DNA of 41,528 bases from Candidatus Woykebacteria bacterium RBG_13_40_15. Lineage in GTDB: Bacteria; Patescibacteriota; Microgenomatia; Woykebacterales; RBG-16-39-9b. The notes under the pieces were generated by a model, which saw only the letters and a program-made list of their open reading frames with translations, searched no databases and was not told where the DNA came from. A program made the translations under genes and the position numbers. The stretch spans positions 99,848 to 141,375 of the forward strand of contig MHCP01000028.1 of the NCBI GenBank assembly GCA_001816655.1, written 5' to 3'. Positions 38,560-39,342 of this stretch are shown here, piece by piece; positions within the stretch are counted from its first letter, which is position 1; each line of letters begins with the position of its first letter.

Positions 38560-39342
38560 CTATAAATAAAAGATGATAAATAAAGCTAGGCTTACCCCAG
38601 CTGCTGTCAGAACAAAGATACCAAGTAGATTTAGAATTAGCGCGAGCTGAATACTAGTTTTCGCCATGGGGTTTCTGCCAATAGATTCGACCCCAGAACG
38701 CAAAGATCTTACGAAAGAGAAAAAGCCCATGAAAAATGTTCCTCCACCTACCAAAAGAGCAAATAAGTAACGAAGGAAGACAGGAAAATTCTCTGGTTTC
38801 TCCAAACTGGTAGTCAAAAGGGTTAAGAGTCTGTTGAAAGTGGGTCTTCCCTCAAGTTGGCGGTATTGGATATTTACAAATACTCTTATTTGACCACTAC
38901 TTCCGTTTAAATTCTCTAAGGCTTTGCCAAGAACAAAACCAGAATCTATAGCCTTTTGTCCCACTCCTGCGGATCCTGAAGAAGTGACAAAATCTCCTCG
39001 TTTTATCGACCCCTTTTTATCACTTACATTGACAAACACCTCCCCATAGGAAACAACCGGCCTTGTATTAGGCCCAATCTTGTTAACGGAAACGCTTGGA
39101 TTTTCTACTACCACTCCAAAAAGATTCTTATCGTATTCTGAAGAGGAGCGGACTGTTCCCTCGTCTGTTTTTGAAATAATATCTCCTGGCCTAGCAAGGT
39201 TGTCGTCGACTGGAATATTAGCAGCAATCCCTGAGCTTGAATTCAGCTCAGCAGATAAAATCTTCGAGGGGTAAACGACTGCAATGATAGTCGCAGCGAA
39301 AAATAGGATTATGGCAGTTTTCGTATCCATGGCAGGCCCCAT
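38560..39342 (-). CDS. Fusion protein: signal peptide, beta-rich ectodomain of about 170 aa, and a C-terminal F-type c-subunit-like helical hairpin lacking the carboxylate
   Basis: The C-terminus [68 protein letters not shown] has a Gly-rich helix 1 and a VESxxR(N/Q)PxAK loop like c subunits. There is no Asp or Glu in helix 2. It lies 13 nt upstream of the b-like gene. Confidence 0.6.

Follow-up and report, generated by a model that had tools for sequence, protein, structure and literature searches.

A c-subunit-like protein with a predicted extracytoplasmic domain and no ion-binding carboxylate heads F-type ATPase operons of the Candidate Phyla Radiation

Background

What does an F-type ATPase do if its c subunit has lost the residue that binds the ion and seems to hold a large domain outside the cell? 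This question is raised by a stretch of 41,528 nucleotides from Candidatus Woykebacteria bacterium RBG_13_40_15 (GenBank assembly GCA_001816655.1, contig MHCP01000028.1, positions 99,848 to 141,375), which was analysed at its full length and is called the window below. Its ATPase operon begins with the gene of a fusion protein, named c' here, and goes on with genes for a b-like protein (b') and for delta, alpha, gamma, beta and epsilon. Metabolic reconstructions of CPR bacteria (Candidate Phyla Radiation, also called Patescibacteria) routinely list an "F-type ATPase", which is assumed to be linked to a proton or sodium gradient. CPR bacteria, which are tiny and uncultured, have no respiratory chain, and the purpose of their ATPase has so far been an open question. 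We find that the C-terminal hairpin of c' is a diverged F-type c subunit and not a chance anchor of two transmembrane (TM) helices, and that its family has lost the ion-binding carboxylate. The CPR "ATP synthase" of the c' type probably has a function other than the coupling of ATP to an ion gradient. We lean, if only slightly, towards the reading that c' is the membrane-ring subunit of a CPR-specific ATPase derived from the F type, in which F1 hydrolyses ATP and drives an external crown instead of an ion flow.

Architecture of c'

The gene was found as an open reading frame (ORF) at exactly the coordinates given by the initial annotation, and every feature listed there for its sequence is present. 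Its parts are:

38560-39342, minus strand: gene of the c' fusion protein, 260 aa, first gene of the ATPase operon
39250-39342, minus strand: signal-peptide-like N-terminus, aa 1-31, MGPAMDTK...PSKILSA/E, read from the sequence
38857-39231, minus strand: extracytoplasmic beta-barrel domain, aa 38-162, from the AlphaFold2 (AF2) model and Foldseek
38800-38838, minus strand: short linker helix, aa 169-181, from AF2 secondary structure
38563-38796, minus strand: helical hairpin of the c-subunit type, aa 183-260, from hhalign, a profile search of the PDB and Foldseek
38668-38679, minus strand: cytoplasmic loop motif G222-R223-N224-P225, from alignments and conservation
38614-38616, minus strand: codon of F243 (Arg+20), the slot of the ion-binding Asp or Glu in c subunits, from alignments
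38629-38631, minus strand: codon of N238 (Arg+15), a conserved polar residue within helix 2, from conservation

Thus c' consists of a putative signal peptide, a beta-barrel ectodomain of 125 aa, a linker helix and a two-helix hairpin, in this order. The AF2 model, built on the family alignment, has a mean predicted local distance difference test (pLDDT) score of 88. The signal-peptide-like segment proposed for the N-terminus was borne out as a hydrophobic stretch ending in KILSA/E; in the model it is a helix at 7-26 followed by a low-confidence linker at 29-35, and among family members it ends in ...(F/L)AQ or ...SA. After the linker helix, at the outer membrane boundary, stands a near-invariant P183-x3-P187-x2-L-R-Y motif (PENxPxxLRY). 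The hairpin is made of helix 1 (183-223) and helix 2 (225-259), both with a pLDDT of 84-90. Because there is a signal peptide and the hairpin loop has four basic residues, the ectodomain is expected outside and the loop in the cytoplasm, which would be the standard orientation of a c subunit.

A diverged c subunit

Is the hairpin really a c subunit? Both Pfam and NCBIfam are silent on the hairpin of c' (the NCBIfam scan gave no match), so homology has to rest on profile-profile and structural comparison. When c' was searched against the PDB with phmmer, the best match was the c subunit of Spirulina (2wie); it was not significant, and the full hairpin was aligned. A profile of 44 family members gave five PDB matches at E<=10, and all of them were F-type c subunits (E 0.026-0.47). 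For the profile-profile comparison, the hairpins of 265 family members were aligned by hhalign with 128 c subunits, namely 120 PF00137 proteins from the database and eight textbook ones. The result was Prob 94.6%, P 6.5e-8 and a score of 46.3 over 70 columns that cover both helices and the loop. As controls, either alignment was reversed, which lowered the score to 15.8-17.2 (Prob 1-2%), and 30 column shuffles scored at most 14.8. Across the two larger comparisons of c' hairpins with c subunits, Prob was 86-95%; with an alignment of only eight c subunits it was 45%. The AF2 hairpin was also superposed by Foldseek on more than 20 c-subunit chains (among them 2wie, 6fkf, 9itt and 2x2v) from cyanobacteria, chloroplasts, Bacillus, E. 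coli, Chloroflexus, Pseudomonas and mitochondria, with template modelling scores of 0.75-0.89, a root mean square deviation (rmsd) of 1.1-1.8 A and an identity of up to 27%. Since the PDB profile search, the profile-profile comparison and the structure agree, the hairpin is a diverged F-type c subunit. The c-subunit-like C-terminus of the initial annotation therefore stands, with clean controls and the fold of a c subunit in addition.

The rival explanation is that the resemblance is a coincidence and that c' is a surface protein held by a generic C-terminal anchor of two TM helices. The silence of the Pfam model ATP-synt_C would suit it, and hydrophobic hairpins can give spurious similarity. 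Against this stand the gap between the hhalign P value and the reversed or shuffled controls (Prob at most 2%), the exact register across the loop and both helices, and the strict synteny with F1 genes described below. This rival is close to refuted, and we give it hardly any weight.

In the loop between the helices, the stretch G-(V/I)-E-A-(I/L)-G-R-N-P-L-A is better conserved than any other part of c'. Its R, N and P do not vary among 44 sequences, and the motif is present in 264 of 265 members. The GRNP loop aligns with ARQP of 2wie, that is, with the canonical R-(Q/N)-P loop, and R223-N224-P225 thus justify the likeness to the c-subunit loop that had been seen by eye. Helix 1 was also described as Gly-rich. 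This is true of the window protein (VGGGTFFMG) and of its close relatives, but it is not a family trait, since distant members carry Ala, Ile or Ser instead.

Loss of the ion-binding carboxylate

In the c subunits of known enzymes an essential carboxylate in the middle of helix 2 binds the ion, for example D61 in E. coli and E62 in Spirulina. What has become of this residue in c'? In the HMMER alignment to 2wie, Arg42 stands opposite R223 and Glu62 opposite F243, so the Phe that had been placed at Arg+20 by counting is exact. The loss is family-wide: among 264 members none has Asp or Glu at this position, where Leu (64), Ile (59), Val (54), Phe (26), Ala (22), Thr (20), Ser (12), Gly (5) and Met (2) occur. 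Helix 2 of the window protein is free of Asp and Glu, as the initial annotation had read directly from it, and across the family an acidic residue occurs anywhere in this helix in just eight sequences, in most cases where it meets the membrane boundary.

Could ions still be moved through a non-canonical site? Such a site might use an Asn of helix 2, a partner that is not a homologue of subunit a, or both. The residue at Arg+15 (N238) is Asn in 237 of the 264 members and mostly Ser, His or Gln in the remainder, so a polar side chain is usually present inside a TM helix. An amide, however, cannot carry a proton as a carboxylate does, and some members have Gly, Val or Ala at Arg+15. What is more, the c' operon encodes no multi-TM protein that could serve as a partner, and b' has a single TM helix without a conserved polar residue. 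We regard a non-canonical ion site as very unlikely.

Family and gene order

How widespread is c'? A word-indexed search found 331 homologues at E<=1e-3 in a 90%-identity collection, and an exhaustive search gave a family of at least 650 clusters at 50% identity (E<=1e-30), nearly all of 245-290 aa; of the exhaustive-search matches, the best 150 were inspected. These numbers are the reason for treating the ORF as a real gene. Thousands of weaker matches are probably the ectodomain in other proteins. The family has no Pfam or NCBIfam model, and c' is annotated as "hypothetical" wherever any source names it. From five context look-ups and a scan of GTDB species genomes, 28 loci with full-length c' were collected. 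The records of c' loci are labelled as Woyke-, Curtiss-, Woese-, Cerri-, Nealson- and Wildermuthbacteria, Paceibacterota and "Saccharibacteria".

The order c'-b'-delta-alpha-gamma-beta-epsilon was found in all c' loci with downstream DNA (about 27 independent ones), with two exceptions. In a Cerribacteria locus, BLAST detected only alpha, gamma and beta after c'; neither a b-like ORF nor one for delta was detected, and epsilon would lie past the end of the contig. In the Woesebacteria locus L028, a soluble enzyme of 574 aa lies between c' and the b-like gene (L028:5073-6797); by eye it resembles what we take to be a cofactor-independent phosphoglycerate mutase. A membrane protein in this 1.7-kb gap was considered and rejected on account of that enzyme. 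The initial annotation had held that homologues mostly outside ATPase operons would speak for a coincidental anchor; full-length homologues instead head b-delta-alpha-gamma-beta-epsilon clusters wherever downstream DNA exists.

In the window, the operon is followed by leuS, and its genes are spaced by -29 to +13 nt: 13 nt from c' to the b-like gene, 2 nt from there to delta and 13 nt from delta to alpha, then an alpha/gamma overlap of 8 nt, a gamma/beta overlap and a beta/epsilon overlap of 4 nt. The genes after c' are:

37863-38546, minus strand: b-like candidate for the peripheral stalk, 227 aa, one N-terminal TM helix and a long charged helix, assigned by operon position
37375-37860, minus strand: delta (OSCP), 161 aa, PF00213 32.3 bits (cutoff 22.3), TIGR01145 E 1.7e-7
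35892-37361, minus strand: F1 alpha, 489 aa, PF00006 E 7e-66, PRK13343 449 bits
35018-35899, minus strand: F1 gamma, 293 aa, PF00231 E 5e-28
33655-35046, minus strand: F1 beta, ORF of 463 aa with a likely ATG start at 35025, TIGR01039 atpD 510.6 bits (cutoff 462.9)
33386-33658, minus strand: epsilon, 90 aa, N-terminal beta-sandwich only, PF02823 E 1e-8 at aa 21-86

The b-like protein has an orthologue in 26 loci. It has no Pfam match and reaches only E 0.6 on TIGR01144; its profile finds weak b-subunit matches in the PDB (9o19_X, E 0.004; 9itj_U, E 0.007) amid coiled-coil noise of the apolipoprotein type. The catalytic motifs of F1 are intact: alpha has GDKKTGKS and the Arg finger SVSRVG, and beta has Walker A, the catalytic GERIRE, PADDITD and ELSLED, which is like DELSEED. 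In many bacteria a C-terminal helical hairpin of epsilon auto-inhibits ATP hydrolysis. This hairpin is missing from epsilon here, and the orthologues have 84-93 aa in nearly all loci.

Two other classes of F1 were considered for this operon and rejected. The first is the N-ATPase or alternate F1Fo, where alpha scored 374 bits on TIGR03324 (cutoff 750) and beta 451 on TIGR03305 (cutoff 752), and the alt_F1F0 models of gamma and epsilon were also matched far below their cutoffs. The second is the F1-like family of mycoplasmas, where alpha and beta fell below the cutoffs of the MSC_0618/0619 and MMOB1660/1670 models and scored higher on the atpA/atpD models.

Where are subunit a and the canonical c? 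In the window and 79 loci (about 1 Mb), a crude scan by hydropathy and motif found neither subunit a nor a small c, and its only match was one spurious antisense ORF. PF00119 and PF00137 are on no called gene of the looked-up contexts and on no large ORF scanned in the window. It may be, then, that both genes are elsewhere, and that c' is an accessory or minority component of a mixed ring, or an assembly factor, of a canonical FoF1, to which it would add an ectodomain while ion coupling is kept. F1, delta and the b-like protein do resemble a normal F-type set, hybrid c-rings that contain a hairpin without an ion site are known from Acetobacterium woodii, and surveys of CPR often report "complete" F-type ATPases. 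The searches for a and c, moreover, covered only the window and the flanks of the loci. On the other side, c' holds the place of c directly upstream of b in every locus, and neither a nor canonical c was found in the 9-10 kb flanks of about 27 loci. Where atp operons are known to be split, the b gene remains grouped with a and c; here it is grouped with F1 and c'. In a complete WWE3 genome its authors could recognise none of a, b and c (PMC3812714), and some CPR groups were reported to have "F1 only" (PMC9166423). All things considered, an accessory role of c' is rather unlikely, though it deserves to be kept in mind.

The ectodomain

What kind of domain would be carried outside? In the AF2 model the ectodomain is all-beta with a pLDDT of about 97. 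On Pfam, its sole match was a sub-threshold one to XM1_gp53 (17.7 vs 27 bits). Foldseek matched it in the PDB at E 8.5e-5 to 1e-3, best to the capsid cement protein of phage Pam3 (8hdt_G, E 8.5e-5), and further to the outer shell of the BB1 (Borrelia phage) procapsid (8pkh), the TW1 decoration protein (5wk1_K), the head-fibre base gp8.5 of phi29 (6qyy) and its preneck appendage gp12 (3suc). In BFVD, phage fibre and appendage proteins were matched at E 1e-10, with an rmsd of about 2 A over about 128 residues and an identity of 26-29%. The guess that the domain is of the kind seen at the tips of surface fibres was therefore roughly right: the fold is that of phage decoration proteins, head-fibre bases and appendages, and it recurs in giant surface proteins.

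Outside the ATPase (loci L034-L079), large surface proteins of CPR contain the module, and it also occurs in metagenome-assembled genomes (MAGs) labelled as Bacteroidota, Omnitrophota and Gammaproteobacteria. The giant repetitive surface proteins P0147 (4,272 aa) and P0168 (1,543 aa) have up to three copies each. In loci of the Nealsonbacteria type, a second ectodomain-bearing protein of 420-467 aa is encoded convergently, directly after epsilon (L021:15636-17021, L023:15219-16526, L025:15213-16484 and L026:15125-16528, all on the minus strand). This second protein matches Peptidase_G2/IMC weakly; four additional genes of small surface or TM proteins lie ahead of c' on the same strand. In the Cerribacteria locus, an ectodomain-bearing protein of 1,952 aa is encoded divergently upstream (L033:2748-8606, minus strand).

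These observations bear on another explanation, namely that c' is a static anchor which, as a ring or not, ties an F1-like ATPase to the membrane and, by an ectodomain that binds the wall, to the cell wall, the ATPase doing non-rotary or cytoplasmic work or serving as a regulated ATP sink. There is no subunit a for a ring to do ion work against, the fold of the ectodomain is that of structural, lattice-binding decoration proteins of phages, and wall-binding or surface proteins are encoded nearby in some lineages. Yet both the rotor (gamma, epsilon) and the stator (delta, b-like) are conserved, which is hard to explain without rotation, and the best-conserved segment of c' is the very loop that makes the canonical contact with the rotor stalk. 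Thus a static anchor seems improbable to us.

A possible mechanism

How might a rotary ATPase with c' work? In the reading that we prefer, c' would oligomerise into a ring as c subunits do, and the ring would dock gamma and epsilon through its GRNP loops, a contact suggested by the homology and the extreme conservation of the loop. The ring would display its ectodomains as a crown on the outside of the membrane. Translocation of protons or sodium ions by the canonical mechanism would be impossible, because neither the carboxylate nor subunit a is there, and for this reason F1 would work as an ATP-hydrolysing motor. Its torque or holding force would pass through the ring to the extracellular crown, and the crown may act on a partner at the surface; possible partners include a host cell, the cell wall and a giant surface protein.

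Several points weigh against this reading. The ring, its rotation, its stoichiometry and its contact with gamma and epsilon are all things that we infer, and the surface partner of the crown is hypothetical. In known c-rings the N-terminus belongs to helix 1, the inner helix; with the ectodomain on the inner helix, at least ten domains of 14 kDa would emerge near the axis of the ring, and the conserved linker (helix 169-181 and PENxPxxLRY) would have to fan them out. The beta subunit scores above the atpD equivalog cutoff, and an F1 that looks so genuine fits an ordinary ion-coupled enzyme as well. It was only in the window and in the 9-10 kb flanks of the c' loci that a and canonical c were missing. 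The Pfam model of c subunits (PF00137) matches neither whole c' at E<=1 nor its isolated C-terminus at E<=10, and the GxGxGxG packing motif of helix 1 is not conserved in distant members of the family.

If the c' operons encode the only rotary ATPase in these genomes, the assumption of ion coupling fails for many lineages and bioenergetic models of CPR need revising. The family is large, short and highly conserved, and this makes it a good structural target.

The divergent neighbour and the intergenic region

Upstream of c' the window seems poor in ORFs from 39.3 to 41.5 kb. A non-standard genetic code or rRNA was considered there and rejected, since the region holds a plain gene on the plus strand which runs past the window end. 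The features upstream of c' are:

39789-41528, plus strand, past the window end: protein with a MerR-like helix-turn-helix (HTH) domain, a TM helix and a Gly/Thr/Ser-rich extracellular region, from translation and profiles
39870-40112, plus strand: its cytoplasmic MerR-like HTH domain, from translation
40356-40406, plus strand: its TM helix, from translation
39500-39516, no strand: palindrome TTTCCCGTCAAGGGAAA, in a conserved intergenic block with a TTGTCA element

The N-terminal domain of this neighbour contains ...GKGDPxNRLRYYTKIGLLPHAKRK..., and the same domain is encoded divergently beside c' in at least 14 other loci (L001, L002, L003, L005, L010, L012-L015, L017, L018, L020, L024 and L027). 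PF00376 (MerR) was matched below threshold by 14 of 15 members, at best with E 5e-4, and the profile of the domain had two matches in the PDB, both of them regulators of the MerR family. In the more distant loci L028-L030 and L040 the N-terminus of the neighbour looks, by eye, like a classical HTH of the MerR/excisionase type. Three independent assemblies break inside the giant divergent gene (the window end at 41528, the contig end of L080 and the contig start of L005/L007), which suggests that it holds repeats that assemblers cannot resolve. In several lineages the stretch between the MerR-like gene and c' is interrupted, always at the same point, by a transposase gene of the IS1595 type with a Zn-ribbon and/or DDE domain (L002:9117-9842, L003/L004:9282-9998, L014:4846-5598, L015/L016:8088-8858).

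The 41.5-kb window contains the TTTCCCGTCAAGGGAAA pattern a single time, where 0.03 occurrences would be expected. Its place in ten loci is always between the MerR-like gene and c'; besides the window, these are the intergenic regions of L002, L005, L006, L011, L013-L016 and L024. A similar element lies near 39742-39774. That the conserved upstream block might act as a leader RNA or attenuator was considered and rejected, as its folding energy equals that of shuffles (z = 0), and Rfam found nothing but one match far below the gathering score (E 0.85). With no signal of RNA folding, the palindrome is treated as a candidate operator. A promoter/terminator scan was not above background (22 found vs 15 +/- 4 expected). 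From sequence it is plausible that a MerR-like regulator, tethered to the membrane and bearing a giant external domain, controls the c' operon.

A still broader picture can be drawn, which we offer only as a tentative possibility: in a large part of CPR the "ATP synthase" might not be coupled to ions at all but be an ATP-driven rotary surface machine, in which a genuine F1 motor turns a carboxylate-less c' ring whose external crown works on the wall, on neighbouring giant proteins or on the host of an episymbiont, under the membrane-tethered MerR-like regulator with a giant extracellular sensor.

Other genes of the window

Some genes elsewhere in the window are recorded here. An envelope and surface cluster at 20063-24070 encodes a PEGA-domain protein (20063-21205), a sortase (21218-21904), a full-length serpin (22290-23558) and a type IV pilin-like protein (23636-24070); a serpin gene is unusual in so small a genome. 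The ORFs of the ribosomal proteins L1 (4566-5411, 281 aa) and L7/L12 (6327-7031, 234 aa) have about 80-100 extra N-terminal residues before the Pfam domains, which are either real extensions or the effect of upstream start codons chosen in the ORF listing. A gene of the GH94 cellobiose/chitobiose-phosphorylase type (11795-14170, minus strand) adjoins several glycosyltransferase genes and MreB.

Comparison with known systems

How far does c' resemble what is already known? The nearest relative by homology is subunit c of the F type (PF00137; for example the c15 ring of Spirulina platensis, 2wie, and the c14 ring of chloroplasts), a two-helix hairpin of about 75 residues with R-(Q/N)-P in the same register. 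Against 2wie, 6tqj and 6fkf the identity of c' is 27% and the rmsd 1.5-1.8 A, and like the canonical c gene its gene lies immediately upstream of b in an operon of the atp type. It differs in the variable, hydrophobic residue that replaces Asp or Glu, in the added signal peptide and 125-aa ectodomain, in the lack of a conserved GxGxGxG, in its failure on the Pfam model and in the lack of an accompanying a gene. With both the carboxylate and a match to the curated model missing, c' was not filed as an ordinary member of ATP-synt_C. Compared with the canonical operon atpBEFHAGDC, the c' operon has alpha, beta, gamma, delta and epsilon in common, while a (PF00119) was not found in it.

A c-type hairpin without the ion-binding carboxylate is known from one F-type rotor, as subunit c1 of A. 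woodii. The PDB entry 4bem, which is among the Foldseek matches, is presumably the F/V-hybrid c-ring of this organism. Unlike c', c1 is one hairpin in an otherwise ion-binding ring with a normal subunit a, and it has no ectodomain. The ectodomain has its own relatives in the barrel domains of phages (8hdt_G, 8pkh, 6qyy, 3suc and 5wk1_K), with which it shares the fold. As in phages, the module is also part of long fibrous or giant surface proteins such as P0147 and P0168; in c' the module is fused to the membrane hairpin of a rotary ATPase.

Has this design been noticed before? The initial annotation knew of no described F-type rotor of the kind. In the literature searched, where several CPR papers treat the ATPase only generically, no fusion of c with an ectodomain is described, and to that extent the statement holds; it does not hold for the operons, which have a precedent in CPR, nor for the wider idea, which has one in mycoplasmas. 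Kantor et al. (2013) reported that in the ATPase operons of WWE3 and OP11 the genes in the place of a, b and c have no homology to known subunits, that (with a citation of Wrighton et al. 2012) a TM protein in OP11/WWE3 ATPase operons is similar to the putative c, and that they could not tell if, or in what way, ions are pumped by this enzyme (PMC3812714). Their "putative c" matches c' in the kind of organism and in its place in the operon and likely belongs to the c' family; their one paragraph gives no domain architecture, c homology, missing carboxylate, ectodomain, missing a or survey. Chiriac et al. (2022) described a group of CPR MAGs that encode "only the F1 subunit" (PMC9166423). For some genomes at least, the literature leans towards a and c being truly absent. 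The design of c' is not wholly unnoticed, yet it is uncharacterised and widespread.

The closest functional analogue is the F1-like X0 ATPase of mycoplasmas (Type 2/3). Its clusters have seven genes, which include those for a 12-TM protein and a small cytoplasmic protein and no delta or b (Beven et al. 2012, PMC3369863; Berlureau et al. 2026, PMC12994834), and one of the encoded proteins combines a signal peptide and ectodomains with a C-terminal pair of TM helices (PMC12994834). The enzyme is required for a surface function, either antibody cleavage by MIB-MIP or gliding (PMC3369863, PMC12994834). As in the c' operon, alpha, beta, gamma and epsilon derived from F1 are combined with a non-canonical membrane sector, and the hosts of both systems are genome-reduced and host-dependent. 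The mycoplasma two-TM protein (MMCAP2_0577/MMOB1650), compared by description only, has the same architecture as c'. There are differences too: the CPR operon keeps delta and the b-like gene, has no 12-TM protein and an F1 nearer to atpA/atpD, and the mycoplasma clusters coexist with a genuine F1Fo. If our reading of c' is true, CPR would hold a second independent F1 motor re-purposed for work at the surface, after that of mycoplasmas. The two-TM protein of the mycoplasma clusters is not known to have been described as c-like. The sequence of c' still shows its link to the c-ring, and so the evolutionary path and the mechanical coupling across the membrane can be tested directly.

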